DNA of 64,000 nt from Myxococcota bacterium (lineage in GTDB: Bacteria > Myxococcota_A > SURF-8), in contig CAXXQS010000002.1 in assembly GCA_963674735.2 (NCBI GenBank), forward strand, positions 1,504,001-1,568,000. The letters run 5' to 3'. The notes under the pieces were generated by a model. That model saw only the letters and a program-made list of their open reading frames with translations, had not been told where the DNA came from and did no database searches. Every line of letters starts with the position of its first letter. Within the stretch, counting starts at the first letter, position 1. The position numbers were made by a program, and so were the translations under genes. Shown here piece by piece: positions 18,824 through 32,477 of this stretch.

Positions 18824-18899
18824 GCCAACGTAGCTCAGCTGGTAGAGCAGCTGATTCGTAATCAGCAGGTCAGGAGTTCGAATCTCCTCGTTGGCTCCA
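18824..18899 (+). tRNA. tRNA-Thr (anticodon CGT)
   Basis: 76 nt cloverleaf: GCCAACG/CGTTGGC acceptor, GCTGA-TTCGTAA-TCAGC anticodon arm, GTTCGAATC T-loop, encoded CCA. Confidence 0.97.
18855..18899 (+). repeat. att core, left copy (within tRNA)
   Basis: TTCGTAATCAGCAGGTCAGGAGTTCGAATCTCCTCGTTGGCTCCA, identical to 32391-32435. Confidence 0.95.
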
Positions 18900-18909
18900 T
18901 AGTCATTTC

Positions 18910-18951
18910 AAAGGGTTAGACGATTTGGAGTCGTCCGACCCTTTTCTTTTT
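18910..18951 (+). terminator. Terminator downstream of tRNA, supplied by the element
   Basis: AAAGGGTTAGACGA-loop-TCGTCCGACCCTTTT followed by a T-rich run. Confidence 0.6.
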
Positions 18952-19076
18952 GGTGCGCTATGGTGCAATGAGGGTGTTTTTAGTCCTTTTTCACCGGGTC
19001 TTCCTGGGATCGATTCAGTGCCCCCCCTGAAACAGATCAGGGGGTGCTAGTTTCGATTCGGAAGGAGGATCAGGCT

Positions 19077-20234
19077 ATGCAAGACAGGAAAGAAAAGACC
19101 CAGGAAAACACCAAAAAGCGAGTCACTCGTAATCGGACATCCGCTCCCCAGAGACGCGGTGACAAGTGGCGGATCCAGTGGACCGACCACACCGGCAAAC
19201 GACGATCGAAGACCTTCGACACCTTCGATGAAGCCAATCGTGAACTTGAACGTGTCAAAGGGGCCAGACGACTCGTTCAGGATGGATCCCTTCCCGCGCC
19301 CCCTGAACCGATCACCTTCAAGGAGTTCGTCAAGACCTACTACATCCCAAACCGGACGGAACAGACACGCTGTCCCCGAAACGATCACTCCATCTTCAAG
19401 AATCATCTGTACACGGCCTTCAACGACTTCAATTTGGTCGATATCGACCTGCGGGTGATCGAATCCTTCAAGGGGAAGAAGTTGTCCGGTGGGATGCATC
19501 CGAACACACTCCGCCACATCCTGACCCTTCTGAAATCCGTTCTTCGATACGCCCATTCGATGGAATTCTTGCTAAGGGTGCCCGCGTTCAAGATGCCGAA
19601 GATCCCGGAACGGCCATACAGCTACATCCGGACCGACGACGGTATCCGGGCCTTACTGAGGGAGGCCAAGAAAGAAACCGATGGGGTCTATGAACTGTAT
19701 GCGACCGCCATCTATACGGGAATGAGGGCCGGGGAACTGCTGGGGCTGATGTGGGACGATGTCGACTTCAACACCCGACTGATCCGCGTGGCCCGATCCC
19801 ACGATCAACCGACGAAATCCGGAAAAGTTCGACACGTCCCGATCCTGGACACCCTCTGGCCCATCCTTCGTGAATGGCGGTTGAAGAACGATTCCAAGTA
19901 TGTCTTCCCGACCGAAATCGGAACCCGGCAGGCCCGAAGTCCAAGGGCGACCAAAACGACCTTCAAAGACTGCCTGGAACGCGCAGGATTGGACGATATG
20001 CGCTTCCACGACCTTCGGCATACCTTTGCATCCCATTGGGCCATGAAAGGCGGTACACGCGAAAAATTACAGGAAATCCTGGGACACTCCGATCCGACCA
20101 TGACCCAACGGTATCGACACCTCGAACCCCAAATCTTTCAGGATGACCTGGGGATCTTCGGAAAGCCTGAAGATCATTCATCGGACAATGTTGTCCAGGT
20201 TGGGGAACATCAAGACGTGGCCGCCAATATGTGA
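19077..20234 (+). CDS. int: Tyrosine recombinase / integrase
   Basis: TGMRAGEL (R), TKSGK (K), FHDLRHT (HxxR), LGHS (H), TQRY (Y); N-terminal arm-binding-like WRIQWTD; AAGGAGG SD. Confidence 0.95.
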   Translation: MQDRKEKTQENTKKRVTRNRTSAPQRRGDKWRIQWTDHTGKRRSKTFDTFDEANRELERVKGARRLVQDGSLPAPPEPITFKEFVKTYYIPNRTEQTRCPRNDHSIFKNHLYTAFNDFNLVDIDLRVIESFKGKKLSGGMHPNTLRHILTLLKSVLRYAHSMEFLLRVPAFKMPKIPERPYSYIRTDDGIRALLREAKKETDGVYELYATAIYTGMRAGELLGLMWDDVDFNTRLIRVARSHDQPTKSGKVRHVPILDTLWPILREWRLKNDSKYVFPTEIGTRQARSPRATKTTFKDCLERAGLDDMRFHDLRHTFASHWAMKGGTREKLQEILGHSDPTMTQRYRHLEPQIFQDDLGIFGKPEDHSSDNVVQVGEHQDVAANM

Positions 20235-20248
20235 TCGTTTAGGGAGTG

Positions 20249-20284
20249 GAACCGGTCCGGGTAGGATTCATCCGGACCGGTTTC
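20249..20284. terminator. Hairpin between convergent int and vsr
   Basis: AACCGGTCCGG...CCGGACCGGTT inverted repeat. Confidence 0.6.
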
Positions 20285-20696
20285 ATTTCCGATCCAGTCC
20301 CTTTTCCAGTTTCCGGATCAGTTTGTCTTCGTTCTTCAATTCGCACTGCCAAACGACCATGACCTTCCATCCCAACTTCTTCAAGTCCTTCGCGTTTCGT
20401 TTGTCGCGTTCGACATTGGCCTTGAACTTGTCCTCCCAGAATTCGACGTTCGTCGCTGGCGTGGAAGCATATCTACATCGTGGGTGGCGGTGCCAGAAAC
20501 ATCCGTGGACGAAGATCACCGTTCGATACTTCGGAAGGACGATGTCGGGTTTCCCAGGAAGGTCTTTTCGGTGAAGACGGAATCGGTATCCCAGGCGGTG
20601 AAGGATGGATCGGACTTTGACTTCGGGTTTGGTATTCTTTCCTTTGACCGCCCCCATGATGCGGGAACGATCTTCTTTGGAAAAGACATCGGGCAT
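20283..20696 (-). CDS. vsr: Very short patch repair endonuclease
   Basis: RSRIM..VKGKNTKPE, LPGKPDIV, FVHGCFWH, VWQCE. Confidence 0.95.
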   Translation of the reverse strand: MPDVFSKEDRSRIMGAVKGKNTKPEVKVRSILHRLGYRFRLHRKDLPGKPDIVLPKYRTVIFVHGCFWHRHPRCRYASTPATNVEFWEDKFKANVERDKRNAKDLKKLGWKVMVVWQCELKNEDKLIRKLEKGLDRK

Positions 20697-20704
20697 CTTT
20701 GAAG

Positions 20705-22813
20705 TCAGTTTTCTTCGGGGTCCAGTTCCTTGAATTCAACATCCGTTGGACCTACACCCATTTTTCTCGGCTCTTTCCCTCTGTGGGCTGTCCCCAGGTC
20801 TAACATTCTTCGGGTTTGGGCGACCTCGGTAATTTTCCGATGGAACCAATTCCCGTCAACATTCCCGATTAGAACGTCCCTGTAATGTTCATAATGATTG
20901 CGTACTCTTTCAAAAACATCTTTCCATAGAAGAATGTCCAGATCTTTTCGTTCCTTCCAGGTCTGAAGGTCTTCCACTTCAAGCGCGGGTTCCTGTCCAC
21001 AAATGAAGACCATATGGAAGTCACCCCTTCTGGATTTCTTCAGCCGGGATTTATATTTTTCGAGTCTATGAAGTTCATCCAATTCGGCGATATGTCCAGA
21101 CCGTTTAATCTCGATAACGACATACTTCCCATCGCCTTCCAGGGCGAGGAAATCATATCGTAATTTTTCATTCGGATCGGAGACGTCTTCTGCGTTCCAT
21201 TCTTTGAGTTGTTTTGTTAAGGATTTTTCTTCGGATAGTACCTGCCATTCAGGATTCAGAAGCCAAGGATACCATGCCAGAAGATCGTGAAGATTGTCGT
21301 CCGTCAATGAAGATGGTGTTTCGGGGGCATCATTGACCAACATGTCGTCGAACTTTTCGATGATATTCAATCGGCCTTGAACGATTTCAAGGATCGCCCG
21401 ACTTTCCAACACTTGCCAACTCCCAAGTTTTTCAAGAAATTCGGCAAGTTTCTCCGGCTCGTCTTCACTCGCGACTTCGTTGATGTCGTCAATCAGATCG
21501 TGAAACTGCCTGAACTCGAAGGCCCGAATCAACGAATCTGCCAAATCGCGGGTTTTTTCCTTTTTCCTGTCCGATTTGCTCAGGATCTTCAGGAAACTTT
21601 CCACTTGTTTATGAGAAGTGGAATCCATCCGATTCATACGCGAAATAAAGTCTTCATCGTTCAAAAGGTAGTATTCGGTGTCACGTCCAACCAAATCGGC
21701 ACACCACCGAATCGCAGCACGGCTAGTACGTTGCCCCCACACTTTGAAATCATCTAACCGATCCTCTTCCCACTTCAACGATTGACGGTCGGTGGATATC
21801 AAATCGCCATCATCGGTATCATCGGAATCGACGAAGTCCGCATGTATTTCTCCTGAAAGATACCTGGTTCCGAATTGGCCCGAAGCCGTAGCTTCTACTT
21901 CGAAAAAGAAATCCGGAGACTGAACCATCTTCCCATTCGCATATATTATGAATCCACGGTATTCTTTGTTTTTCAGTGGACTATCGGCACATCCGTAGCG
22001 GTAAAGTATTTTTTCGCCACTCGGTAATTCATGGGACAAGTATAAAAACTCTCGGCCATCGGTGACTTCCACTTTCTCTGTTACTTCATTTTCCTCGGAA
22101 GGCACTTCTTCCAGGAACGATAATTCGGGTTCCTTTACTTCATTGCCGTTGACGTAGATTTTCATTTGGCCCCGAACTCTTCGACCGAACATCCGAGCCA
22201 ATGCCACACTCAGCGTTTCTTCGTCCAACGGTGTTTTGTGCTTCAACGACTTCAATGTCACTATGGTTCCGTTCGACCCCAATCCTTCAGCATCTTTTTC
22301 AATTCCTCCGATCGGAACTTGGGTGACATCTTCCTCGCCTTCACCACCGTATAGTTTACTTTTGTCCCAGTCGAACTCGATAACCTTTCCATTCTTCCAG
22401 GTCTTAATCGCCATCGCATCGGCGATTCCGAATCCACCAAGTTTCCCTAGTCCTTTTCGACCAATAACCGGCCTTTCGGGATTACCACTGTCTTGTCCTT
22501 CTGCGCGTCTGTTTCTGCCGACAACCAGATATTGGTCCTGGACAGCACCCTCGTTCATGCCGCAACCATCATCCTTGATGATGATTTCCGACTTTTCCAC
22601 ATTCAGTATTCTCTTTGATGGATCATTCGGATCATCCATGAATGAGTTTTTCAATTCGATCTCGACAATGTTTGCACCGGCATCCCATGAGTTCGATACG
22701 AGTTCGGCAATCGCCATATCGCGACGCTTGTACAACTGCACCCCTAGATGATGGAGGGTCTTCCCAAGGACTCTTAAATGGAATTCGACTTTTCGTTCGG
22801 AACGATCAGACAT
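20705..22813 (-). CDS. GHKL (MORC/MutL-like) ATPase fused to C-terminal PD-(D/E)XK nuclease
   Basis: ELVSNSWDA, DDGCGM, GRKGLGKLGGFG, GTIVTL; C-terminal YDFLAL...VVIEIKR. Confidence 0.82.
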   Translation of the reverse strand: MSDRSERKVEFHLRVLGKTLHHLGVQLYKRRDMAIAELVSNSWDAGANIVEIELKNSFMDDPNDPSKRILNVEKSEIIIKDDGCGMNEGAVQDQYLVVGRNRRAEGQDSGNPERPVIGRKGLGKLGGFGIADAMAIKTWKNGKVIEFDWDKSKLYGGEGEEDVTQVPIGGIEKDAEGLGSNGTIVTLKSLKHKTPLDEETLSVALARMFGRRVRGQMKIYVNGNEVKEPELSFLEEVPSEENEVTEKVEVTDGREFLYLSHELPSGEKILYRYGCADSPLKNKEYRGFIIYANGKMVQSPDFFFEVEATASGQFGTRYLSGEIHADFVDSDDTDDGDLISTDRQSLKWEEDRLDDFKVWGQRTSRAAIRWCADLVGRDTEYYLLNDEDFISRMNRMDSTSHKQVESFLKILSKSDRKKEKTRDLADSLIRAFEFRQFHDLIDDINEVASEDEPEKLAEFLEKLGSWQVLESRAILEIVQGRLNIIEKFDDMLVNDAPETPSSLTDDNLHDLLAWYPWLLNPEWQVLSEEKSLTKQLKEWNAEDVSDPNEKLRYDFLALEGDGKYVVIEIKRSGHIAELDELHRLEKYKSRLKKSRRGDFHMVFICGQEPALEVEDLQTWKERKDLDILLWKDVFERVRNHYEHYRDVLIGNVDGNWFHRKITEVAQTRRMLDLGTAHRGKEPRKMGVGPTDVEFKELDPEEN

Positions 22814-22823
22814 TCATTTGTCC

Positions 22824-23861
22824 TTAAAATGTAAGATGTTTTCTAATCTGGTTGGCCTGTCGTCGAATGAACTCCGGTGGAAGAGCGTTGCCGATCATTT
22901 GGCCGGCTCCGGTCTTTCCCTTGGCCAACGAAAAATAGTAGTTCCTGGGAAACGTCTGTAAGAGAGCCGCTTCCCGTAGGGAGATCGCACGATCTTCTTC
23001 TGGATGAAGGAAACGCCCCTTTGAGGGATTGAAGCACCCACTGGTTATCGTCGACGACACACGGTCCCACCACAGTCGCCCATAGACATCTTTGAACCCA
23101 GGGCATTTCTTGTGGCATTCCAGTTGCCATTCTTCGGGAAGATCCATTCGACTACCACCATCCTTCGGAACCAATCGGATCAGTTGACGGGTCTTCTCCG
23201 TCCTTTTTTCGCCGATGTCATGAAGGGGATCTTCACTTTCGCCGACAGGGGGAAGTCCCTCTATCGCTTGGCGGACCGTGAAGGTTTTAGAGGATTTTCT
23301 GGCGAATCGAATCTTTCCTGTTTTCGATGCCAGAAGGATCAATCGCTTCCTTCTTTGTGGGACGCCGAAATTGGAGGCGTCGAACACCTTCCTTCTGACC
23401 GAATAACCGATGCCTTCAAGGTCGGCCATGAATTTGTCAAGACGTTCATCCGTTGCGAGTCCGGGGACGTTCTCCATCATGACTGCTTCGGGCTGCATCG
23501 TTTCGATGAACCTGAAGAAATCGAACACCAGATCGTTCCTGGGATCGTCCACCGATCCGGGTCTGTTCAGGGTTCTCATGGATGAAAACCCCTGACAAGG
23601 TGGACACCCCGCGAGTAACGACAATTCACCCTGTTTCAGACCCAAATCGTTCATGACCGCTTCGGGATCAAGTTTGGTGATATCTTCTTTCCAAACCTTC
23701 ACTTCAGGATGATTCACTCTATAAGTGTCGACTGCGAGGGGTTCGATTTCGATCGCCCCTTTTACATCGAATCCGGCCTGTTTCAGGCCAAGGGTCAACC
23801 CGCCCGCCCCGCAGAACAGGTCGACCGCACACAACTTCGTTTTTTTCTTTCTTCTACCCAT
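22824..23861 (-). CDS. dcm: DNA (cytosine-5)-methyltransferase
   Basis: DLFCGAGG, GCPPCQGFS, MENVPG, VPQRRKR, REAALLQTFP, IGNALPP. Confidence 0.95.
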   Translation of the reverse strand: MGRRKKKTKLCAVDLFCGAGGLTLGLKQAGFDVKGAIEIEPLAVDTYRVNHPEVKVWKEDITKLDPEAVMNDLGLKQGELSLLAGCPPCQGFSSMRTLNRPGSVDDPRNDLVFDFFRFIETMQPEAVMMENVPGLATDERLDKFMADLEGIGYSVRRKVFDASNFGVPQRRKRLILLASKTGKIRFARKSSKTFTVRQAIEGLPPVGESEDPLHDIGEKRTEKTRQLIRLVPKDGGSRMDLPEEWQLECHKKCPGFKDVYGRLWWDRVSSTITSGCFNPSKGRFLHPEEDRAISLREAALLQTFPRNYYFSLAKGKTGAGQMIGNALPPEFIRRQANQIRKHLTF

Positions 23862-24022
23862 TCGCGTCTCGGAATCATAGATAACAGTGCGATAATTCTA
23901 CCAATTTGACGCTTTCAACGCAAGAGAAAGCGTTTTCCCACGTCGGGATTCATCCCTTATACCGGAATCGGTGCCGATTCTCAAAGAAATCACCCAAATC
24001 CCCCGCACAGGGTGAAAGGAAA

Positions 24023-24424
24023 CTAGGGTTTCTTCTTTTTGAATTTGGCGGAACCATGACCGATGTGATCAGTCAATTTTTCATCGACATCACGAAGGAC
24101 TTCTCCTGTCTCCTGATCGACAACCAATTCACGATATCGGTTACCATCCTTGTCGGTAATCCTGGTCTTATCCACCCACTTGTCCTTGTCGATCCTCTTT
24201 TCTTCCCCTATGATTTGTTCATGCCGAATCTTCTTTTTCGAGGGCTTGGAATCGTCTTTCAGTCTTGTGCGAGTCCATTCACGGGGTTTGGGAATCGTTT
24301 CCTCAAAGAATGTCTGAATTTTCAGTTTAGAACTGCCACAATATGGACATTGTTCTGGCGGATTACTTAACGGACCATCAAGTTCCTTTTCACATTCCCT
24401 GCAAAACATTTTGAATTCACTCAT
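24023..24424 (-). CDS. Zn-ribbon hypothetical protein
   Basis: CREC...CPYCG; C-terminal LTDHIGHGSAK; start overlaps the upstream gene stop. Confidence 0.7.
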   Translation of the reverse strand: MSEFKMFCRECEKELDGPLSNPPEQCPYCGSSKLKIQTFFEETIPKPREWTRTRLKDDSKPSKKKIRHEQIIGEEKRIDKDKWVDKTRITDKDGNRYRELVVDQETGEVLRDVDEKLTDHIGHGSAKFKKKKP

Positions 24425-25499
24425 AATATCCTCCGAGCTTCTTTATCGTCGAATCGTATCGCCGCTTGATCCCGACCGTCGGGTCAAGATCCAGGGCAGA
24501 CTTCCACAAGCCGACCGCCGTTTCCAGGTCGCCTTCGGCGTGGGCGATCTCCCCCTTGAACCGAAGGAAACGGGCCTTCCAGTTCGGCTCGAACGTTTCC
24601 ACATCCCCTTCCACCGAAGCCAAACGTTCTTTCGCTTCGTCGATCTTCGGTGGCTTCTGTTTCAGGGCATCCCATGCCCCATCGATGAATTTGACGTACG
24701 GGGGAATATGAAGGACATGTTCGTTCCAGGCGTCTTCGAATCCCGGTGGGAGTTCCCCTTTGGGACCGAACGGGAATAAAAGTCGTTCTCCATCGTCCTT
24801 CCGAATCACGGCGCATATCCGGTCTTCGTCGAAATCGATCCTGTCCCAGAAGTCCGCCTTCCAAATCTGTTTGCCGGTACTCGCTTCCAGATAGAAAGTC
24901 TTCCCCGAATGCGGTTCATGGTCGCTGTTGGCCGTACACACGAACACCCTGGACGAATCCGGCGAAAACCCAGACGTGTAGATATTGGCCTTGTAGTGCT
25001 TCGCCCACAGTCGATTCCCTTCCTTGTCGAAGGCCAACAGCGCCCCGGACAGGTTTTCATCTTTCCAGTCTTCCACGATCACCATACCGTCGTCGGTGAC
25101 ATGGGCATTGTTCGCCCGATTGATGGTCTTGACGAACAGCGGTCGATTCGATCCCGATTCGAAAAGGGCGCACTTGCCCTTGATACGTCGGTCGTTTTCA
25201 TAGTGATGATCCGACGATCCGACGATGAAGCGACCGTTCGGTGAAACGTGATCCTTCATCACGAACCCGTCGCGGGAAATGGACAGAAAGTCTTCACCAA
25301 AATCGGAACCGGGATCGGATGTCGGAACCCTTCGATCGGAAGTCGAAGGTGACGGTATTCCCCGCGCCTGGGACTGTGACTCCATCGATCGCTTCAACAT
25401 ACCGTAAATGGCGATCGGGAAAAATACGATGAACAGAACGACCAACAACAGGTCGTTGTCGTACCATTTTCTAGTTTCTGGTTGAATCGTCATCTTCAT
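24417..25499 (-). CDS. Membrane-anchored beta-propeller + TPR protein
   Basis: N-terminal TM (LLLVVLFIVFFPIAIYGML); SPNGRF, DKEGNRLW, STGKQIW repeats; C-terminal TPR (GEIAHAEGD...ALDLDP). Confidence 0.65.
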   Translation of the reverse strand: MKMTIQPETRKWYDNDLLLVVLFIVFFPIAIYGMLKRSMESQSQARGIPSPSTSDRRVPTSDPGSDFGEDFLSISRDGFVMKDHVSPNGRFIVGSSDHHYENDRRIKGKCALFESGSNRPLFVKTINRANNAHVTDDGMVIVEDWKDENLSGALLAFDKEGNRLWAKHYKANIYTSGFSPDSSRVFVCTANSDHEPHSGKTFYLEASTGKQIWKADFWDRIDFDEDRICAVIRKDDGERLLFPFGPKGELPPGFEDAWNEHVLHIPPYVKFIDGAWDALKQKPPKIDEAKERLASVEGDVETFEPNWKARFLRFKGEIAHAEGDLETAVGLWKSALDLDPTVGIKRRYDSTIKKLGGYYE

Positions 25500-25550
25500 C
25501 CAATCGCTGGCAAAGAATTCAAGATTTCTTCTTCTCCTATCTCAAACCGT

Positions 25551-26213
25551 CTATCTTCTTCTCCACGGAGATTTGTATCTTCCATTATTGGTCTGGTGGT
25601 ATTCTGCAAGATGGTCGGCAAGGTAATTGTCAACTATTACTATGATTTTCTCGATATCATCGCGATAGGAAATCAGATCGGGAATCTTGACATAGTTTGC
25701 TCCAGAACCTTGGTGGGCAATATCCCCCCTGACACCAACAAATTCATCCAGATCGGGATAAGTCCCATCCCACGAATCAGAAATACTTTCAATACCCAAA
25801 AATCTCTTGAATAGCTTATCAAGGTGTTCTTTTTTTGGCGTATTCAACTTGTCTACTTGATATTGGGCGACTTCTTGTAGAAGATTAACCCACCCATCCC
25901 CCGCAAGCTCAAAAGGTTTCAGTTCATGTTTACTTTCTTTAACGTAGGTGGACAAGTATCTCTTTACAGGAACAGGAATGTTGTCGGGGCTGGAAGTGGA
26001 ATCGATCATTTTCTTAAGACTTTCGAGCAAAACACTTTCCATGTACTGTTCCCAGGCAGCACAAAGCATAACGACCCCGCTACGGGTGATATGTCCCAGT
26101 CCTCGTCTTCCTCTTCCACTATCGCTTAGGAAGGAATGGGTATTGATTAGCTTGTCAACATCAACTACTAGGGTCTTCTCAAAAGTCGAGAGAGCTTCCG
26201 ATGGCATCTCCAC
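25551..26213 (-). CDS. HEPN domain protein (RiboL-PSP-HEPN-like)
   Basis: RSGVVMLCAAWEQYME N-terminal motif; RGDIAH (RxxxxH) RNase motif. Confidence 0.8.
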   Translation of the reverse strand: MEMPSEALSTFEKTLVVDVDKLINTHSFLSDSGRGRRGLGHITRSGVVMLCAAWEQYMESVLLESLKKMIDSTSSPDNIPVPVKRYLSTYVKESKHELKPFELAGDGWVNLLQEVAQYQVDKLNTPKKEHLDKLFKRFLGIESISDSWDGTYPDLDEFVGVRGDIAHQGSGANYVKIPDLISYRDDIEKIIVIVDNYLADHLAEYHQTNNGRYKSPWRRR

Positions 26214-26356
26214 CCCCTGGTGATGAATGGAACGATTCCTCGCTCAGAGTCTAAATTCATTTTTGCGCCAAGTGTAAACGGTCGATGACCGGAGCATACC
26301 GAATTCAAGTGTGTCCGTCAAAACAATCGCATTCACAAAAAATAGAGTATGAATAA

Positions 26357-28816
26357 TCACCGCACACACCTGATCCCGGCGACTTCGGTCTTTGTCTTGT
26401 CCACGGTCTGTCCCGTCTCGAAGTCGACCGCCTTCGCGTATCGTGGTTCGTAGGGGTCGGATGTCGACGACCAGAACACTTCCGACGGCATGGACGGGAA
26501 GGTGGACGCCGGATCGTATTCGTTGAACTTCACGATGGACCATAGTTCCTTGACGTTCGGAAGTCGCCAGTCGGTGTAACCGCCGATCGTCGCCGACTCG
26601 CAATAGGACAGGGTGTCTTCCCACGAATAGTCGGTCGGATCGATCGATGGCCATCGCTGCCAGTGAAGACCAGTTCCCAAGTCGAAGATCACGGAACTTT
26701 GATAGACATACCGGGACTCGAAACCGGCTTCCGACCACGACGGATGGTTTCGGACACATCGGACATTGAACCCTGTGTCACGATCGGACCACCCCAACGC
26801 GCCCGATCCTGTGTTCACGAACCACCCATAGCCTTCGTACCAGGACGAATCGACCACGGTCGACGTCCAGAAAACACCACCCGAATCCGGGAACGCCACC
26901 GGGTCCAAACTCTTTGATCCGCCGAATTCCAGAAGGGTGATCCATTCGTGGGCGGTCGGAAGTTTCCAGTCCGAATATCCGGCATAAGTCAGACCGCTAC
27001 AGAACGAAACGGCGTCCGACCTGGACATGGTCGACGTCGCCGAAATCTGCGTCCAGACGAATCCGGTCACGCTTTCGACCACCACCGGGTCGCCCATCAC
27101 GGTTTCCACATAGATCGCCCGTGGAATGTCCTGATACTGCCCGTCCTGGCCGCAATATTGGGTAATGCTACAGGCCGACCCACCGGCCTCGCCCGGACAG
27201 GGAATCCGATACCATTCGCCATAACAGGCGGTCTGACCGGTCGGCGTCACCGGCCACAGACCTTCGGACCGTTCCGTCGCCTCGAATCCGCCACAGTTCG
27301 GATAGACACCCGGTGCGCCTTCCTCGCACTGTCCACAGTCCGATCCCGTGAAGTTGTCCAGACAGTCGCATCCCCCGGTGTCCGGAAGACAGACCCCGTG
27401 CCCCTCGCAACCGACCGCCCAAGTTCGCTCACAGGAACCGTCCAGACACACGTTCGGACCGGTACACAGACCGTCGTTTCCGCACGGTGTGTCGTCCGGG
27501 GAATCGACGACCGAACATCCCCCTTCGCCGTCGCACTCGCTCGATTCCTGGCATTCCGCAGGGGCGCAGGAATAGGGGATCGCCCCCTGACACACACCTT
27601 CCGAATCGCAATAGTCCGCCTTCGTGCAGGGATTTCCGTCGTCGCACTCCGAATACGTTTCCTTCGGAACCCATTCGTTCGAAGCCGAATCGCACTTTTG
27701 ACACGAATCATCGGGGTTCCATTGTCCATCGGCGAAACAGGTGTCGCCGATCAAACACATCGTTTCGATCCGATCGTGAAGACAAATTCCCGATCCGTCG
27801 CAGTGGTCGTCGGTACAGTCCTTTCCGTCCGATTCGCATGAAGTCGCGTTGTCCGGGAAGGCGACCACACAGGTATTCGATCCGTCACAACTCCGATCGG
27901 CTCCGCATATCCCCGGACCATCTTCACAAACGATCGGTGTTCCGCCACAGGTTCCACCATCGCAATGATCGCCATAAGTACAGGGATCGGAGTCGTTGCA
28001 GGTTTCCGATTCGGGCTTCGAGGCCCATCCATTCGTTTCCGAATCGCACCATCGGCATTCGTTGTCCGGATGGTTTTCATGATGGACATAACAGGTTCCG
28101 CCGATCAGGCAGAATCCATCCTGGATCGGATGGACGCAATCGTGGTCCGCATCGCACACATCATCGGTACAAGAGAAATCGTCCGTTTCTTGAAGACAGT
28201 CCGATCCGACCGACAACCATTCTCCTTCCGAACAACATGGTCCACCCTCGCATTCGGGTGGATCGGTTTCTTCTGGATCTTGGTCTTCGTCGACGGATTC
28301 TTCCGACTCCGTGTCCGGTTCCGGGTCTGGATCGACGTCTGGATCGGCTTCGATCTCGGAATCTTCTTCCCGCTCCGGGTCCGGATCGCTATCGACCCGA
28401 TCCGTGTCCCCTTCATCCGACTCCGAATCCAGATCACCATCGGGGGAAGAATCTTCATCGTTCTCAAAACCCCCGTTTTCGGAATCCCCTTCAAGATCGC
28501 CGTCGGTATCGTTGACATCGTCAAGATCCGACTCCGACAATTCCACTTCATCGAATTCGCCTTCTGACGATCGATCGTCGTCAGGGGTATCCAGATCCCC
28601 GTCCAAACCCGGATCGTCGCTCACACAGGCATTCTGACGGCATTTCAGGCCATCGACGCACGTTCCGTCGTCGTAACAAGGACACCCTTCCGTTCCGGCT
28701 GGACACGACTCGTCAAGATCGCCGTCTGAAGACGGACTACCGACCTGCGAAGACCCGGAACATGAATACATTCCGAGAAGAATCAATAGGGATAGGATCG
28801 AAAGGTATTTCGTCAT
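26357..28816 (-). CDS. Cys-rich lipoprotein with acidic DGD linker and two DUF1566 (Lcl C-terminal) domains
   Basis: Lipobox MYSC; CDDGNPCT-type repeats; TGQTACY..GQDGQY; WKLPT/WRLPN, FWTST/FWSST and VRCVR/IRCVR duplicated. Confidence 0.85.
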   Translation of the reverse strand: MTKYLSILSLLILLGMYSCSGSSQVGSPSSDGDLDESCPAGTEGCPCYDDGTCVDGLKCRQNACVSDDPGLDGDLDTPDDDRSSEGEFDEVELSESDLDDVNDTDGDLEGDSENGGFENDEDSSPDGDLDSESDEGDTDRVDSDPDPEREEDSEIEADPDVDPDPEPDTESEESVDEDQDPEETDPPECEGGPCCSEGEWLSVGSDCLQETDDFSCTDDVCDADHDCVHPIQDGFCLIGGTCYVHHENHPDNECRWCDSETNGWASKPESETCNDSDPCTYGDHCDGGTCGGTPIVCEDGPGICGADRSCDGSNTCVVAFPDNATSCESDGKDCTDDHCDGSGICLHDRIETMCLIGDTCFADGQWNPDDSCQKCDSASNEWVPKETYSECDDGNPCTKADYCDSEGVCQGAIPYSCAPAECQESSECDGEGGCSVVDSPDDTPCGNDGLCTGPNVCLDGSCERTWAVGCEGHGVCLPDTGGCDCLDNFTGSDCGQCEEGAPGVYPNCGGFEATERSEGLWPVTPTGQTACYGEWYRIPCPGEAGGSACSITQYCGQDGQYQDIPRAIYVETVMGDPVVVESVTGFVWTQISATSTMSRSDAVSFCSGLTYAGYSDWKLPTAHEWITLLEFGGSKSLDPVAFPDSGGVFWTSTVVDSSWYEGYGWFVNTGSGALGWSDRDTGFNVRCVRNHPSWSEAGFESRYVYQSSVIFDLGTGLHWQRWPSIDPTDYSWEDTLSYCESATIGGYTDWRLPNVKELWSIVKFNEYDPASTFPSMPSEVFWSSTSDPYEPRYAKAVDFETGQTVDKTKTEVAGIRCVR

Positions 28817-28842
28817 GGGCGCACCTGCCAGAATTCAGAGTT

Positions 28843-29073
28843 AAAAAAAGGGCGACGTGCAGCCAGGCGAGCCCACCACACGCGCCCCCCTGAAGAGCGC
28901 GCGCGGGTGCCACCCACGCACGGTACAGGTGCGCTGTGACTCGCCTGTTTGTCTGTCCGATCGGATTCGATCCTTCCCGATCACGGTTGGCTAGACCGCC
29001 GGTCCCTTCAGGGACAGGGAAGAAACGGATTCGACGAACATTTGGAGTATATCAGGGAAGGTATGGAAGGCAA
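28843..29073 (-). promoter_or_regulatory. Promoter plus structured 5' leader with terminator/antiterminator upstream of the DUF1566 gene
   Basis: TTGCCT-16 bp-TATACT with TG extension (29073-29046); hairpin 28887-28850 followed by U7; competing strand CAGGCGAGUCAC at 28947-28936. Confidence 0.6.
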
Positions 29074-29117
29074 ACGGAAATCTGGAACAATACAAACGGT
29101 CCCTATCGTTTGAGATT

Positions 29118-29405
29118 TTAGATGGGATTTTCGTCTTGGTGAAGGTGATAAGGAGTCAACACCAAAGAGTACTTGTACCGAGTTGCACCGGCTCTCTCGG
29201 CGGATGAAACAATGGCCTTTTTGCAGTATTCGAGCACATCATCGTATTCCTGGCCAAGACCGGGACTATAGGCGTATGCCATTGATTTGTCAGCACAACG
29301 GTTCAGACCCGAATGAGCCATTATGTTGTCAAATTCTTTTTCAATATAGTTCCCATCAAGGTCAATCACTATCAGAACGGTTAGATCATCTTGTGACGGC
29401 ATCAT
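29118..29405 (-). CDS. Hypothetical protein
   Basis: AAGGAG SD; 95-aa ORF co-oriented with its neighbours. Confidence 0.55.
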   Translation of the reverse strand: MMPSQDDLTVLIVIDLDGNYIEKEFDNIMAHSGLNRCADKSMAYAYSPGLGQEYDDVLEYCKKAIVSSAERAGATRYKYSLVLTPYHLHQDENPI

Positions 29406-29457
29406 TCTACTCCTTGAATTTCTAATTCTATGTAGTCTGAATTATCTCATACCATGT

Positions 29458-29712
29458 TCAATACATCAACTCGAAACCACCTCCTTCTTCTTCCTGCCAT
29501 TGTTCGGCGACCGACTTCGCCTCTTTCAAAGTCGGGATCACTGCGGACTTATGGATCTTCGTATCTCCATCGTCGGCCATGAACATCTTCATGATTCCAT
29601 ATCCGCGACCGGATTCGTACCGACCCTTTTTCGTTCCCAGAACGATGCTCAGAGTTCCCCCCGAAACATCTTTCCGAAAGATCTTCAAGTCCGGGTCTGG
29701 CATGGAAGTCAT
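29458..29712 (-). CDS. Hypothetical protein
   Basis: AAAGGA SD; 84-aa ORF co-oriented with its neighbours. Confidence 0.55.
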   Translation of the reverse strand: MTSMPDPDLKIFRKDVSGGTLSIVLGTKKGRYESGRGYGIMKMFMADDGDTKIHKSAVIPTLKEAKSVAEQWQEEEGGGFELMY

Positions 29713-29770
29713 CGATAGATCCTTTCCGAAAACAGGTCATGAAATCATGGTTCGATCGTATCCGCAGAAA

Positions 29771-30000
29771 CCGAGTTCGGCAACGCGAAAGGCGAAAGCG
29801 AGCTTGGAATTGACGCTACACACGTTCACCACAAGTGGTATATGTAGAGTCCGATCGACCTTACACGTTCCCCACACGTGCGGTATACCCTCTGATCGAT
29901 TTACGTTGCACGAACGTTGCACGAACGGTACACCCCTTTTCCGGTTTTTCCTTGCACAAGCATTGCACATGTTCACCACACCCCATCCTTGACTATATCC
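29771..30000. repeat. Degenerate direct repeats and hairpin next to rep (candidate origin)
   Basis: ACACGTTC..CCACA..GGTATA..GATCGA units at ~29819 and ~29863; tandem CGTTGCACGAA x2; GTTCACCACA x2; hairpin CCGAGTTCG/CGAGCTTGG. Confidence 0.5.
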
Positions 30001-30039
30001 CAGCAAATATCTGTAATCATTGGTATATTCACGATATTG

Positions 30040-30741
30040 TCATTCCTGGCCGATCAGTCGTCCCGTTCCCCAGGCGATCAGAAGTTTTCGGTGTTTGATC
30101 GCCATGATTATTTCATTCAATTTCCGAAGGGAATCGGGGGTCGGCTCCGTGGGTGTCGGACACCATGTTTCTTTCTTCGTGATGTAATCCGCCAGTTGTT
30201 TTAATCTTCGAAGGTCGACCTGGGGATCGGTGTGGTATTCGAATCGACCTGTCCAGTTCGTCCCCGAAATCCGTGTATACTTCCCCCATGACTCTTTCAA
30301 GAAATCCGTATCGATTCCCTGATCGTCCAGGATCAGATGTGCATGTACGAGCCAAAATCCCGTCGTTTCATCATACTTCACTTCCAGGGCCGATACTCCA
30401 CCTGGGACGTGGGACTTGAACTCGACACGATGACGGATCTTCAACAATGAATCTCGGAACAGGGTGATCGCCCTCGCCAAGTCATACATCTTCGAAACGG
30501 AAACGAGGAAGGCGACCGAGTTGTCGAACTGTCTTATCGCCATCTGAACGTGGGCCGAGTTCCTTTCCGCGATGATTCCAGCACAGGTTGGACACATTCT
30601 TTGTTTACACAGCGTCGTGTGAGGATATCCGAGATAAAAGTTTTTCGTTCCACAGTTCAGGATTCTTCCGGCCAATTCCCTATAACCGAGTTCTTCCAGT
30701 TCTTTCGATCTTGCCTCTTGCAGGTCTGGATTGAATATCAT
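30040..30741 (-). CDS. rep: Rolling-circle replication initiator (Rep_1-like HUH endonuclease)
   Basis: CKQRMCPTC Zn motif, GGVSALEV, HUH VHAHLIL, catalytic YITK. Confidence 0.75.
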   Translation of the reverse strand: MIFNPDLQEARSKELEELGYRELAGRILNCGTKNFYLGYPHTTLCKQRMCPTCAGIIAERNSAHVQMAIRQFDNSVAFLVSVSKMYDLARAITLFRDSLLKIRHRVEFKSHVPGGVSALEVKYDETTGFWLVHAHLILDDQGIDTDFLKESWGKYTRISGTNWTGRFEYHTDPQVDLRRLKQLADYITKKETWCPTPTEPTPDSLRKLNEIIMAIKHRKLLIAWGTGRLIGQE

Positions 30742-30797
30742 GTCAGGAACTTTCTTTTTATGGTGGTCAATGATCTAAGGGTGAACGAGATCCGATC

Positions 30798-31001
30798 CTA
30801 CTCGGAGTCGGAGTCTTCCGCGTTCTGTGGCATGACATGTCGTTGTTTGATCCAGTCTTCGAGTTCTTCCAGATCGAAACGAACGGTTCGACTGTTCAAT
30901 CGGTAGTGGGGAATCTGTTTCTTACAGACCATAGAATACAGGGTAGGCTTTTTGAATCCGAAGATTTGGGTCACTTCGTCATAGGTCGCATATTTCTTCA
31001 T
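30798..31001 (-). CDS. AlpA/excisionase-like HTH protein
   Basis: EVTQIFGFKKPTLYSMV...IPHYRL...VRFDLEELEDWI; AAAGGAG SD. Confidence 0.85.
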   Translation of the reverse strand: MKKYATYDEVTQIFGFKKPTLYSMVCKKQIPHYRLNSRTVRFDLEELEDWIKQRHVMPQNAEDSDSE

Positions 31002-31097
31002 GGGATCTCCTTTCCACGTGATGGCTGGACAAGGTCCAGAAAACTAATCGTGTTAGGAGTAGATCATGAAGGAGAGGATTACAGGAGGGTCACTGAA

Positions 31098-32330
31098 TCA
31101 CCATTTACTTCTTTTATTGCGTTTCTTACGACATTTCTCTGAACATATTGTGGACGGACTGGCACTGTCGGGATCATTAGATCTCTGAAAAACGGGGGTT
31201 CCACATACCTGGCATAGAGTGGGAATTTGAGGATCGGTGAATCGAGGAACATAATTGAACTTTCCACCGAATTCGTTCGGGTCATCTTTTGAAGGCCAAC
31301 GAGTGACAGGATCTTGTTTATCCAATAAATCAGCCAGGGTCAATTTGCCTTCCTTGTAAAGTCTCCGAATTCTTTCTTCTTCAGGATACTCAAACCCAGG
31401 ATCCGATTCATCCTTCATAAGCCAGTTCCAGAGACGAGCTATATTCTCGATGAAGTTATGGAACAATCTGTATCTTTGGGCCTCCCATCGGCCTGTGATT
31501 TTACCAAATAGGATCAGTTCGATCCTGGTTGGATCTCCAGAACGGACCACCATATCAGAAAGGATCAAGCTCCTTTCCTCTTCTTCGGTCAACCCTCTTA
31601 CTTGGGCATATAGATGGAAACAGTCGAGAACCAGTGGGATCAATCGAGATGCCACACCTGCGGCTATGTCCATGTCCTTCGATCCATCGACTATGGGTGA
31701 TCTGCGATCACGAAGAGACAATTCCCGGATCTGTGATCGCAGCGAAGCCCTAAGATAGTGATCTCGGATAAACTCCTTTTTCGGTATGTATGGCTCATAC
31801 CCTGTGTGTAAATTGTCTTTGAAGTCGATTTCGTGATCGGACACCACTGGTTCGAAAGGATGTTCACCTTCTTCTAGTTTCGACCTCGTTCCATCGATTG
31901 ACTTTTTCAATCCACAGTACGCCAAGAACTCTCTTACGATTACACTTCCGGCATCGACGATGGATCCTCGTTCGTCTTTCATCGATATTTTCGGGTTGGA
32001 TGGAATCCTCGGATCTTTCCGTTTAGGACCGGACCGAACGTAATCACCCAAGTATTCGCAATCCGACTCCCACACTTCGTCTTCGGACATATCATCGGTC
32101 AGACGGGAAAGACTTTCCCTTTTTCGTTTCGTGTATTCCGCCCTCAAACGAGGATCGGTCAAATCTTCATCTTCCGGTCCCCAATCGAGGTCTTCGGAAG
32201 GTTCGTCACATAACTCGGAAGGGTTTTCCTTATTAGGTTTCTTTGGATTCATCGCCATCTTTTCTTCGGTGCATTCGGGTGCAACAACATGGGCAAGTCT
32301 ATCGAAATGAGACAAACTTGACAAGAACAA
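31098..32330 (-). CDS. Hypothetical protein with C-terminal CxxC...CSxxC zinc finger (start probably ~32258)
   Basis: Long ORF; acidic N-terminus; CQVCG...CSEKCRKKR. Confidence 0.65.
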   Translation of the reverse strand: MFLSSLSHFDRLAHVVAPECTEEKMAMNPKKPNKENPSELCDEPSEDLDWGPEDEDLTDPRLRAEYTKRKRESLSRLTDDMSEDEVWESDCEYLGDYVRSGPKRKDPRIPSNPKISMKDERGSIVDAGSVIVREFLAYCGLKKSIDGTRSKLEEGEHPFEPVVSDHEIDFKDNLHTGYEPYIPKKEFIRDHYLRASLRSQIRELSLRDRRSPIVDGSKDMDIAAGVASRLIPLVLDCFHLYAQVRGLTEEEERSLILSDMVVRSGDPTRIELILFGKITGRWEAQRYRLFHNFIENIARLWNWLMKDESDPGFEYPEEERIRRLYKEGKLTLADLLDKQDPVTRWPSKDDPNEFGGKFNYVPRFTDPQIPTLCQVCGTPVFQRSNDPDSASPSTICSEKCRKKRNKRSKW

Positions 32331-32390
32331 CGAAATGGATTAATCAAAGAAGAACAAGGAACTTTGAAATAATCAAGATTCCAGGGAGAC

Positions 32391-32435
32391 TTCGTAATCA
32401 GCAGGTCAGGAGTTCGAATCTCCTCGTTGGCTCCA
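32391..32435 (+). repeat. att core, right copy (tRNA-Thr 3' fragment)
   Basis: Identical to 18855-18899; lacks the tRNA 5' half. Confidence 0.95.
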
Positions 32436-32443
32436 GTAATTAC

Positions 32444-32477
32444 AGCCACTTAGAAATATTCTAGGTGGCTTTTTTTG
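32444..32477 (+). terminator. Terminator after attR
   Basis: AGCCACTTAGA-AATAT-TCTAGGTGGCT followed by a T-run. Confidence 0.75.

Follow-up and report, generated by a model that had tools for sequence, protein, structure and literature searches.

The window analysed here, a stretch of 64,000 nucleotides of Myxococcota DNA, contains a compact element of 13,536 bp integrated at a tRNA-Thr(CGT) gene. This element is probably (with a probability of roughly 0.6) an integrative, non-conjugative rolling-circle replicon, which resembles an AICE without Tra. The evidence comes from its boundaries and gene content, from the assignment of its Rep protein to the HUH initiators, and from relatives in which the same gene modules are conserved.

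Insertion site and gene content

The element is enclosed by two exact 45-nt repeats. As these copies start at 18855 and 32391, the insert is 13,536 bp long, and tRNA-Thr stays intact because the element provides the 3' 45 nt of the tRNA. A search with the repeat gave two matches at up to three mismatches, and any match was obtained in 0 of 100 shuffles. In genome G003, the tRNA-Thr gene is uninterrupted and is directly followed by a terminator hairpin homologous to the one found here 3' of attR. The boundaries of the 13.5-kb element are established. Its features are the following:

18824..18899, plus strand: tRNA-Thr(CGT), the integration target (ARAGORN; sole tRNA of the 64-kb window)
18855..18899, plus strand: attL core, left 45-bp repeat, spanning the tRNA from anticodon loop to 3' end
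19044..20234, plus strand: tyrosine integrase, 396 aa (Phage_integrase E 3.5e-33; phrog_1 2.6e-63)
20283..20696, minus strand: Vsr very-short-patch repair endonuclease (Vsr 1.4e-31; TIGR00632 156.6 bits, above cut-off)
20705..22813, minus strand: BbrUII/HgiDII-related type II restriction endonuclease containing a GHKL ATPase-like domain
22824..23861, minus strand: C-5 cytosine DNA methyltransferase (DNA_methylase 1.4e-59; PADLOC MTase_II 3.1e-88)
24023..24424, minus strand: zinc-ribbon protein, 133 aa (weak sub-threshold matches only)
24417..25499, minus strand: 360-aa protein whose N-terminus contains a hydrophobic stretch (translation), with a weak beta-propeller-like match
25551..26213, minus strand: HEPN protein, RiboL-PSP type (PF18735 4.7e-19, 69.5 bits, cut-off 28.4)
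26357..28816, minus strand: 819-aa Cys-rich secreted/lipoprotein-like protein with two Lcl_C (DUF1566) domains (Lcl_C 2.2e-45)
29118..29405, minus strand: 95-aa ORF (no family match; no tblastn match in other loci)
29458..29712, minus strand: 84-aa ORF (no family match; no usable Atlas match)
29820..29984, minus strand: iteron-like repeats within a 327-bp non-coding stretch downstream of rep (repeat analysis)
30040..30741, minus strand: Rep, 233 aa, Rep_1-lineage initiator of rolling-circle replication, HUH type (profiles, alignment, AlphaFold model)
30798..31001, minus strand: excisionase-like HTH_17 protein, 67 aa (HTH_17 1.8e-10)
31098..32330, minus strand: p410, a backbone protein with a C-terminal CxxC...C...C motif and two relatives
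32296..32380, minus strand: conserved non-coding block flanked by p410 and the attR core (alignment with contig L047)
32391..32435, plus strand: attR core, right copy of the 45-bp repeat, an exact direct repeat
32444..32470, plus strand: native tRNA terminator, displaced beyond attR and outside the element (terminator scan)

All 13 ORFs of the element are open, and the integrase is the only one on the plus strand. Its translation contains the motifs MRAGE, TKSGKVRHVPI, HDLRH, LGHSD and QRYRHL, which, by reading, we assign to the tyrosine-recombinase catalytic set R-K-HxxR-H-Y. With regard to the cargo, the type II restriction-modification set is accompanied by Vsr. The endonuclease matches NF050001 at 3.6e-65, yet its 220.8 bits are below the cut-off of 550; it also matches HATPase_c_3 (2.3e-16) and PADLOC REase_II (2.6e-27). 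The HEPN protein, which matched no PADLOC system, is a candidate RNase or defence cargo. The hydrophobic stretch of the 360-aa protein is likely a membrane anchor, and the PQQ_2 score of this protein (24.6 bits) is under the cut-off of 27.6. Its weak match to phrog_74 (E 0.0025, residues 307-354) was not credited as a terminase small subunit. This match aside, capsid, portal, tail, T4SS and FtsK families are absent from the 13 ORFs according to Pfam, PHROGs and NCBIfam. The Lcl_C protein exhibits 32-35% identity over more than 600 aa to an Lcl_C protein adjoining the Rep of genome G009. This gene content is established, and it bears out the original prediction of a compact tRNA-Thr-integrated element with exact 45-bp att repeats, an integrase with all catalytic motifs, defence cargo entirely on the minus strand, and no capsid or conjugation genes.

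The predicted AlpA/Xis gene upstream of rep holds in part. The 67-aa protein scores 36.1 bits against TIGR01764 'excise' (cut-off 28.8) and 20.1 bits against Phage_AlpA, under the cut-off of 21; judged by these profiles, it is an excisionase-type HTH protein and not strictly AlpA. The pairing itself is conserved, with an xis-like gene directly upstream of rep in six of the 11 Rep loci examined.

Rep and the candidate control regions

Rep exhibits an N-terminal Cys4 motif (C30, C45, C50, C53), the HUH residues H133 and H135, and a catalytic Y186-x-x-K189; the motifs CKQRMCPTC, HAH and YITK, which had been claimed earlier, are all found in the translation. The profile comparison suggested for 30040-30741 gave a divided answer: the window Rep itself is below the gathering score of Pfam Rep_1 (28.9 against 33.2 bits), whereas Rep_1 is matched by 58 of its 83 aligned relatives. 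Among 1.84 billion representatives, 640 relatives of Rep were found at E<=1e-3, 102 at <=1e-10 and 7 at <=1e-30. In the family alignment, which comprises 83 of 150 listed relatives, six residues never vary (C45, C50, C53, H133, H135 and Y186), and at least 90% of the sequences retain C30, E120 and K189. Using hhalign, the family was aligned with a plasmid Rep from Staphylococcus simulans (NZ_CP095106.1, 4,050 bp) at 98.5% probability (E 2.3e-15) over 181 columns, which include the Cys motif, the HUH and the Tyr.

The AlphaFold model of Rep (pLDDT 96.7, pTM 0.91) shows an HUH-type fold. This model gave 96 matches in BFVD at E<=1e-3 (best 6.7e-11), and those with a name among the 50 listed comprise HRPV1 protein 1 and replication initiators of microviruses. 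With VIA-align, the best PDB rows are HUH Reps, namely SIRV1 ORF119 and geminivirus Rep (Z 6.0), followed by AAV5 Rep (5.5), Helitron (5.4) and RepB (4.7), although the tool describes Z values in this range (5-6) as common, and ACT/ferredoxin folds rank in between these rows. Foldseek against PDB returned no match at E<=1e-3. Rep is a divergent but true HUH initiator of the Rep_1 lineage, as predicted, and its family and catalytic residues are established.

Among 5.8 billion proteins, just two relatives of p410 were found. One exhibits 98% nucleotide identity over 885 bp and lies in G006, a genome of a third family, within an IS-ridden remnant at the corresponding tRNA-Thr site; the other, on the metagenome contig L047, exhibits 28% protein identity, and the p410-xis-rep order is preserved there. 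Translation of p410 more likely starts at the ATG near 32258 than at the TTG (32330). A promoter-like TTGTCA-17-TAGACT (promoter scan) lies in the conserved block adjoining attR, with AATCTTGAT, TCAAAG and CTTTGAT motifs upstream of it. Its local alignment score with L047 is 37, against 15.1 +/- 2.2 for shuffles, and was reached by 0 of 1000 shuffles and by 0 of 74 other windows of L047. This block may combine the operon promoter with attP arm sites or a nick region; a candidate hairpin within it is weak and no better than shuffles. The iteron-like region comprises an 18-nt unit present three times and GTGCAA present four times, as two tandem pairs. It could be a Rep-binding or origin region, and its ssDNA fold is not significant. 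CTTGAT occurs once in the 1,521 nt of non-coding DNA (about 0.7 expected). The element showed no recognisable single-strand origin, SSB gene or copy-control gene.

Relatives and similarity to known elements

In the 11 Rep loci examined, the Rep homologues sit in small elements and not in large prophages or ICEs, and three loci are bounded by exact repeats. Besides the window element, these are L003 of the same genome (12,638 bp, 69-bp repeats, serine recombinase, tRNA-Glu) and L057 of genome G174, which belongs to another family (12,357 bp, 45-bp repeats, tRNA-Met, int-xis-rep). A decayed sibling of the window element lies at tRNA-Thr in G006. Homologues of xis are found immediately upstream of rep in L010, L011, L013, L047 and L018/L057. 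In L010 and L013 the int, xis and rep genes adjoin one another; in L057, xis and rep are separated by a 172-aa ORF. The integrases adjoining xis-rep are 49% (L018/L057), 36% (L010) and 35% (L013) identical to that of the window. The conservation of the int-xis-rep and p410-xis-rep modules in relatives is established, as is the recent horizontal movement of the element between families.

The AICEs of the pSAM2 type are described (PMC2440964, PMC3218068) as integrating in tRNA genes with a rep-xis-int module and requiring rolling-circle replication for transfer. They are approximately 10-20 kb long, with a tyrosine or serine recombinase, an HUH rolling-circle Rep and variable cargo, and their excision precedes replication (same sources). 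The element shares their size class, tRNA site, int-xis-rep module with an HUH Rep and variable cargo. In contrast, it exhibits neither an FtsK/SpoIIIE Tra gene nor Pra/Kor regulators, its host is of a Myxococcota lineage and not an actinomycete, and its Rep, which has an N-terminal Cys4 motif, belongs to the Rep_1 (PF01446) lineage. With regard to Rep_1 plasmids of the pC194/pUB110 type, the homology of Rep extends across the entire catalytic core (CxxxxCPxC, motif I, HUH, Y-x-x-K), with an identity of just about 21-25% to the S. simulans plasmid Rep. Those plasmids are free and 2-5 kb long, whereas this Rep is located on an integrated 13.5-kb chromosomal element with integrase and excisionase, and the exact CTTGATA origin motif was not found near rep.

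Alternative readings and proposed mode of replication

The 94%-complete host genome was searched for four families, and no large terminase (Terminase_6C), HK97 capsid, Zot or VirB4 (PF03135, the sole T4SS family searched) was found. These results bear on several other readings of the element. It could be an integrative mobilisable element, in which Rep would act mainly as a relaxase nicking an oriT, a helper pore would move the circle and replication would be secondary. Rep_1 (PF01446) plasmid initiators are described as doubling in replication and ICEBs1 mobilisation, and RCR-type relaxases as common in streptococcal IMEs (PMC5357655). In addition, the element moved between families yet carries no transfer gene of its own. 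Firmicute IMEs with such relaxases (Rep_trans/MobT and others) are likewise small, with their own recombinase, an HUH/RCR nickase and no mating pore (PMC5357655). However, they use other HUH families, usually accompanied by a TcpA coupling protein, and neither TcpA nor VirD4 was found in the element. No T4SS or FtsK gene was found among the scanned ORFs of the 11 Rep loci and no VirB4 in the host, and this reading appears unlikely.

Slightly less probable is a phage satellite, excised on infection by a helper phage, amplified by Rep and packaged in helper virions. In its size, its tRNA site, its defence cargo and its pairing of an integrase with a small xis-like HTH gene, the element is similar to PICI or P4-like satellites, and the corresponding tRNA-Thr site in G009 is occupied by a 16.7-kb island with a D5_N/DUF5906 primase-helicase. 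The sole hint of a satellite lifestyle among relatives is the G174 sibling, which has a large terminase (Terminase_6N/6C; phrog_2 1.7e-32) and no recognised capsid or portal gene. This terminase, which adjoins an IS (rve transposase), could have been left behind by recombination. The replicon of the element is an HUH Rep and not a primase-helicase, no terminase, packaging, capsid-remodelling or capsid-redirecting gene was found in it, the host genome lacks matches to Terminase_6C and HK97 capsid, and the queries used returned no relatives in the phage collection or IMG/VR. The 'satellite-like' label given originally is unsupported by the element itself.

Doubtful to a similar, marginally greater, extent is a fixed or decaying island with a relic or co-opted Rep. 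The assembled contigs of runs with the element end at the att repeats and contain neither attB nor attP, the G006 sibling is clearly decayed through IS insertions, and only one copy was found among 401 sampled genomes of the phylum. Against this, the 45-bp repeats are still exact, every ORF is open, all invariant residues are kept in integrase and Rep, and the promoter block is conserved. A defective integrated ssDNA phage (Pf-like inovirus or microvirus) that has lost its virion genes is very improbable: Pf prophages share the tRNA site, integrase, HTH_17 excisionase (which also regulates the replication initiator) and a size of about 12 kb (PMC7549136), and microvirus initiators are among the structural matches of Rep, but coat, G3P-like and Zot/pI morphogenesis genes are missing from the element and Zot from the genome, neither small ORF exhibits a hydrophobic coat-protein-like segment in its translation, the phage collection gave no match, and Rep belongs to the plasmid Rep_1 type.

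Several results count against the rolling-circle replicon that we favour: the Rep_1 score under the Pfam threshold, the Foldseek search of PDB that returned nothing at its cut-off, the VIA-align Z values, contigs that end at the repeats and show neither an excision junction nor a circle or ssDNA intermediate, motif and fold searches that located no origin, the lack of a recognisable single-strand origin, SSB or copy-control gene, and a length of 13.5 kb, above that of typical Rep_1 plasmids. For this non-conjugative replicon, the following course can be proposed. Insertion by the tyrosine integrase would have taken place through recombination across the 45-bp identity, within the 3' part of tRNA-Thr(CGT). 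The conserved promoter just inside attR would drive a p410-xis-rep operon, and Xis and Int would release the element as a circle. Rep would then nick the double-strand origin of the circle, located either in the conserved block adjoining attR or in the iterons downstream of rep, and prime rolling-circle replication by host enzymes, which would maintain or amplify the excised form. An outside helper could also exploit the nick for transfer. The cargo comprises the restriction-modification/Vsr set together with the Lcl_C surface protein and the HEPN protein. A literature search found no published description of such an architecture in this lineage, in agreement with the earlier view that it is poorly described, and the family to which the element belongs is small and unannotated.

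Insertion site and gene content

The only tRNA gene of the window, tRNA-Thr(CGT) (18824-18899), has its last 45 nt (18855-18899) exactly repeated at 32391-32435. These two copies, attL and attR, delimit an insert of 13,536 bp. No further copy of the repeat with up to three mismatches is observed in the window, and none of 100 shuffled sequences produced a match. In G003, a genome of the same family, the tRNA-Thr gene is uninterrupted and is directly followed on its 3' side by a terminator hairpin, which is homologous to the terminator at 32444-32470, just right of attR. The element is thus inserted between the tRNA and the tRNA's own terminator, as is expected of site-specific insertion. The GC content is 0.45-0.60 within the element versus 0.54-0.62 to its left. 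Directly right of attR, at 32555-33880, it falls to approximately 0.41 across ORFs of 210 and 230 aa, the translations of which are rich in hydrophobic stretches; this region may be the remains of another insertion.

The element sequence is present in sequencing runs of one study, with all sampled words found in X1 and X2 and 29% of them in X3. The contigs assembled from these three runs stop at the att repeats (approximately 18857-18890 and 32406-32435), which is neutral on excision. The joins 18899-32436 (attB, the empty site) and 32390-18900 (attP, the circle junction) occur in none of these contigs, all of which break at the repeats. An integrase variant, or else a related strain or element, occurs in the X2 sample too, as a second contig across part of the integrase gene (19239-19613) shows 29 differences in 375 nt, at a depth of 2.7 versus 7.9.

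Genes of the element (window positions, strand, product)
19044-20234, plus, tyrosine integrase (Int), adjoining the tRNA
20283-20696, minus, Vsr
20705-22813, minus, type II restriction enzyme related to BbrUII/HgiDII
22824-23861, minus, cytosine-5 methyltransferase
24023-24424, minus, zinc-ribbon protein of 133 aa
24417-25499, minus, 360-aa protein with an N-terminal hydrophobic stretch
25551-26213, minus, RiboL-PSP HEPN protein
26357-28816, minus, Cys-rich 819-aa protein with two Lcl_C domains
29118-29405, minus, orphan ORF of 95 aa
29458-29712, minus, orphan ORF of 84 aa (p84)
30040-30741, minus, Rep, 233 aa
30798-31001, minus, HTH_17 excisionase-type protein (Xis), 67 aa
31098-32330, minus, orphan protein p410, 410 aa

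Searches of the 13 ORFs against Pfam, PHROGs and NCBIfam gave no credited match to a capsid, portal, tail, terminase, T4SS, coupling protein or FtsK, and no match to a primase, D5_N or helicase. No FtsK_SpoIIIE match was obtained among them at E <= 0.01, no DUF3631 or Prim-Pol match was found in the element, and no gene redirecting helper packaging or capsid assembly was recognised in it. The match of the 360-aa protein to a small terminase (phrog_74, E 0.0025) is weak and was not credited. The Atlas scores of p84 do not exceed 0.84.

Rep and the Rep_1 lineage

Rep proves to be a true HUH initiator from a divergent part of the Rep_1 lineage and has a Cys4 motif in its N-terminal region. A HMMER search of 1.84 billion representatives returned 640 relatives at E <= 1e-3, 102 at E <= 1e-10 and 7 at E <= 1e-30. 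We aligned 83 of the 150 listed relatives, all near full-length single matches; the other 67, which were left out, are fragments, fusions or partial matches. C45, C50, C53, H133, H135 and Y186 are invariant across the 83 aligned sequences, and C30, E120 and K189 are retained in at least 90% of them. The profile of the Rep family (A1) aligned by hhalign with the Rep annotated on the 4,050-bp plasmid NZ_CP095106.1 of Staphylococcus simulans over 181 columns, with a probability of 98.5% and an E value of 2.3e-15, pairing CKQRMCPTC with CKNRFCPVC, HAH with HFH, and DYITK with KYSGK. This alignment, together with the invariance of H133, H135 and Y186, bears out the HUH homology of the original prediction.

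The profile search that had been proposed as a check of the Rep_1-like assignment matched most relatives to Rep_1 and placed Rep itself below the threshold. Rep scores 28.9 bits against Rep_1 (PF01446), its residues 42-138 matching positions 7-113 of the 253 profile positions, and thus remains under the gathering cut-off of 33.2 bits. Yet the Rep paralogue of the host genome reaches 47.0 bits, the Reps of loci L008, L010 and L013 reach 34.6-35.6 bits, and Rep_1 is matched by 58 of the 83 aligned relatives at E <= 1e-3. On the strength of these scores, we therefore file Rep as a divergent branch of the Rep_1 lineage rather than as a Pfam-defined member. Zn_Tnp_IS91, the zinc domain of IS91 transposases, is matched by 7 of the 83 relatives; an IS91-type transposase was nevertheless rejected, as there is one invariant tyrosine and the ends of the element are integrase att sites.

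The AlphaFold model of Rep reached a pLDDT of 96.7 and a pTM of 0.91 with the alignment, versus a pLDDT of 38.7 with the single sequence only. It gave 96 matches in BFVD at E <= 1e-3, and the named ones among the 50 listed are microvirus initiators and HRPV1 protein 1. In a VIA-align comparison with 48,161 PDB chains, HUH Reps lead with Z scores of 6.0-4.7, a modest and common range in which ferredoxin-like folds are interleaved; SIRV1 ORF119 and geminivirus Rep come first (Z 6.0), followed by AAV5, B19, Helitron, RepB and TnpA-REP. Foldseek found nothing in the PDB at E <= 1e-3 with this model, and phmmer found nothing among PDB sequences with the Rep sequence. The family profile retrieved only a chance ribosomal match (E 1.4) from the same sequences, and a word-indexed protein search returned only the query itself. 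Nine of the ten closest Rep clusters are singletons, and the three bearing a name are called 'hypothetical protein'.

Rep loci, p410 and the tRNA-Thr hot spot

The Rep family is sparse. The protein query detected it in 3 of 61 related genomes, and the profile (E <= 1e-5) in 10 of the 401 genomes sampled from the phylum, only four of which are below 1e-50. No close relative is found in PLSDB, where seven records, all from Staphylococcus, show approximately 25% identity, and none in the phage collection or, with the pattern used, in IMG/VR. We examined 11 Rep loci.

Loci with Rep relatives
L003, host genome, approximately 128 kb from the element (G000:C2:1650597-1663303; L003 597-13303): exact 69-bp repeats, 12,638 bp apart
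L057, another family, tRNA-Met (G174:C40:3253-15654): exact 45-bp repeats, 12,357 bp apart
L010, genome G004, tRNA-Arg: adjoining int, xis and rep, with a second recombinase, an Eco57I-like methylase and an Lcl_C protein
L009, genome G004, tRNA-Glu: rep with a large serine recombinase
L013: int, xis, rep, then HTH_3, ArdC-N and a resolvase
L011: two HTH_17 genes, rep, a ParB_N protein and a tyrosine recombinase
L008/L012, genome G009: rep, a reverse transcriptase and an Lcl_C protein 32-35% identical to that of the window
L014: rep 1.9 kb from tRNA-Leu, no neighbour identified
L047, a 2.6-kb metagenome contig: p410 (28% identity), xis (53%) and rep (43%), in the order of the window
L048, 1.6 kb: rep, then a weak ParB_N-like ORF

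The repeats of L003 begin in the last 8 nt of a tRNA-Glu gene and enclose a large serine recombinase, the 3' end of which lies within the repeat, a Rep paralogue (33% identity) and, as cargo, a multi-PAS hybrid sensor kinase of 2,478 aa. In L057, an integrase 49% identical to that of the window is followed by xis, a 172-aa ORF and rep, and then by a resolvase, regulators, an IS and a large terminase (Terminase_6N/6C; phrog_2 at 1.7e-32), which is preceded by a 173-aa HTH_24 protein; no capsid or portal was recognised in this locus. Att repeats were not found for L010, L009 and L014, the sole match being 12 nt in L009 (E 0.19), and the 9,159-bp contig L011 has no terminal overlap of the kind expected from a free circle. 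Since no T4SS, FtsK or capsid gene is present among the scanned ORFs of the 11 loci, the Rep homologues are not confined to large prophages or ICEs, in line with the compact element first proposed.

Six of the 11 loci have a xis-like HTH_17 gene just 5' of rep, namely the five in which a tyrosine integrase is visible and the short contig L047, in which no recombinase is seen; neither of the two large-serine-recombinase elements has such a gene. Over this small number of loci, such a distribution is consistent with a factor that sets the directionality of the tyrosine integrase.

Two further gene types recur downstream of rep. Cys-rich Lcl_C (DUF1566) surface proteins are encoded 3' of rep, on the same strand and in the order of the window, in 3 of the 11 loci (window 26357-28816, L008 15425-17668 and L010 18071-19162); the 5.26-Mb host genome has only 19 Lcl_C domain matches, grouped into approximately 14 ORFs. 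These proteins may represent a recurrent cargo or a backbone function. A ParB_N-like gene follows rep in two of the closest Rep relatives, L011 (2639-4063; 31 bits, over the cut-off) and L048 (1151-1612; 20.7 bits, under the cut-off), and there is none in the window element.

The backbone protein p410, encoded beside attR, has only two relatives among 5.8 billion proteins, one in L047 and one in G006, which belongs to a different family; an alignment-based search retrieved only these two already aligned sequences. It has no Pfam match, no credible match in PHROGs, NCBIfam or PADLOC, and no usable Atlas match. In G006, an 885-bp stretch is 98% identical to the window, and identity is 87-90% in the adjoining DNA on the attR side. 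Such near-identity between families points to a recent horizontal transfer of this type of element.

The G006 sequences belong to an island array at tRNA-Thr(CGT) (G006:C1:2280414-2344545, loci L030-L033; tRNA at C1:2344470-2344545), in which two partial 3' copies of the tRNA gene lie 58 kb and 64 kb from the full one. In the outermost 5.6-kb segment, transposase genes of the IS3 and IS4/5 types come after the p410 homologue, and this distal unit is an IS-disrupted, decayed sibling in a tandem array. In G009, the tRNA-Thr gene carries an unrelated 16.7-kb island (G009:C59:23989-40752, L046) with a D5_N/DUF5906 primase-helicase, a HTH_3 repressor-like gene, a truncated integrase and no Rep, and in G004 a partial tRNA-Thr copy lies 93 kb away from the tRNA. 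Unrelated islands share the tRNA-Thr(CGT) site, which is a hot spot.

Candidate origins and proposed mode of propagation

Two regions of the element could be the replication origin. The first comprises approximately 85 nt between the attR core and p410, which align with the start of contig L047 with a local score of 37; 1000 shuffles gave 15.1 +/- 2.2, none reaching 37, and the maximum of 74 other windows was 20. The proteins of the window element and of L047 are just 28-53% identical. This conserved block includes a promoter-like TTGTCA-17-TAGACT (TATACT in L047), preceded on its 5' side by AATCTTGAT, TCAAAG and CTTTGAT, and a weak 6-bp hairpin. It also includes, at 32372 on the minus strand, the sequence CTTGAT, which is given as the nick motif of the pC194 family in PMC2440964. 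As approximately 0.7 copies are expected by chance in the 1,521 nt of non-coding DNA of the element, the single copy observed there is not significant alone; exact CTTGATA occurs in the element only inside cargo genes. The second candidate is the 327-bp non-coding stretch 3' of rep, which contains iterons (29820-29984), with an 18-nt unit present three times and GTGCAA four times. Folding of this region as ssDNA gave no significant fold (z = 0.16 and 0.10), and a simple motif comparison of the rep-downstream regions of five loci revealed nothing shared.

The best-supported reading, to which we give a probability of about 0.6, is that the element is an integrative rolling-circle replicon. Int and Xis would generate an excised circle, and Rep would then nick the origin and drive rolling-circle replication (RCR) of this circle. 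The same scheme operates in pSAM2-type AICEs, where RCR is required for transfer according to PMC2440964 and PMC3218068. The element resembles AICEs in having a recombinase with att sites in a tRNA gene. The initiator adjoining xis is of the RepSA, RepAM or Prim-Pol type in AICEs; here, an RCR Rep of the Rep_1 lineage lies beside xis. The element has no FtsK/SpoIIIE-type Tra for the transfer of double-stranded DNA. Lacking Tra and residing outside the actinomycetes, it does not qualify as an AICE.

The element also resembles IMEs, with its own recombinase and att sites and no mating pore. In IMEs, an oriT and a relaxase are used by a helper T4SS, and Rep could serve as the relaxase, a role possible for Rep_1 proteins according to PMC5357655. 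Such a mobilisable element is nonetheless unlikely, since no coupling protein is seen in it and a search of the host genome gave no VirB4 (PF03135). A phage satellite, for which the terminase of the G174 sibling (L057) is the sole support, appears rather improbable: the host genome has no terminase, HK97 capsid or Zot match. PICIs and P4-like satellites, moreover, have a primase or helicase module where the element has a HUH Rep, and they carry packaging or capsid-redirecting genes, none of which is found in the element, the large terminase being in its relative. We consider it improbable, too, that the element is a fixed relic; no junctions were seen, in contigs that end at the repeats, yet the two repeat copies are identical and every ORF is open. 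A defective ssDNA prophage is very improbable, as Pf-like integrative inoviruses have a Zot/pI ATPase and coat proteins, whereas Zot (PF05707) was found neither in the element nor in the host genome and no coat-like genes were found.

The integrative rolling-circle replicon could, more speculatively, represent in Myxococcota a broad and so far undescribed class of small replicons that integrate in tRNA genes and spread by hijacking something else, although we regard this as doubtful. This class may combine a recombinase with a Xis-like protein, a HUH initiator of the Rep_1 type and defence cargo, and would have no pore. Its members would possibly be rolling-circle-replicating satellites of unknown helpers, a possibility raised by the terminase of the G174 sibling, by the orphan p410 with the conserved cis block near attP, and by the Cys-rich Lcl_C proteins of 3 of the 11 loci. 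If this is true, Rep would make multimeric DNA for packaging by a terminase, or p410 and the surface protein would serve a new transfer route.

The literature covered, in the parts available, describes AICEs, Firmicute IMEs and Pf prophages, and no Rep_1-type integrative replicon was found there for Myxococcota. Integrative RCR elements are well described only in actinomycetes, as AICEs, and in Firmicutes, as mobilisable elements. Very few native plasmids are known from myxobacteria, so an int-xis-rep cassette that is self-contained and has a defined attP could, provided that it replicates, be of use as a genetic tool. The element further illustrates how genes for restriction-modification and HEPN defence are spread within this lineage.
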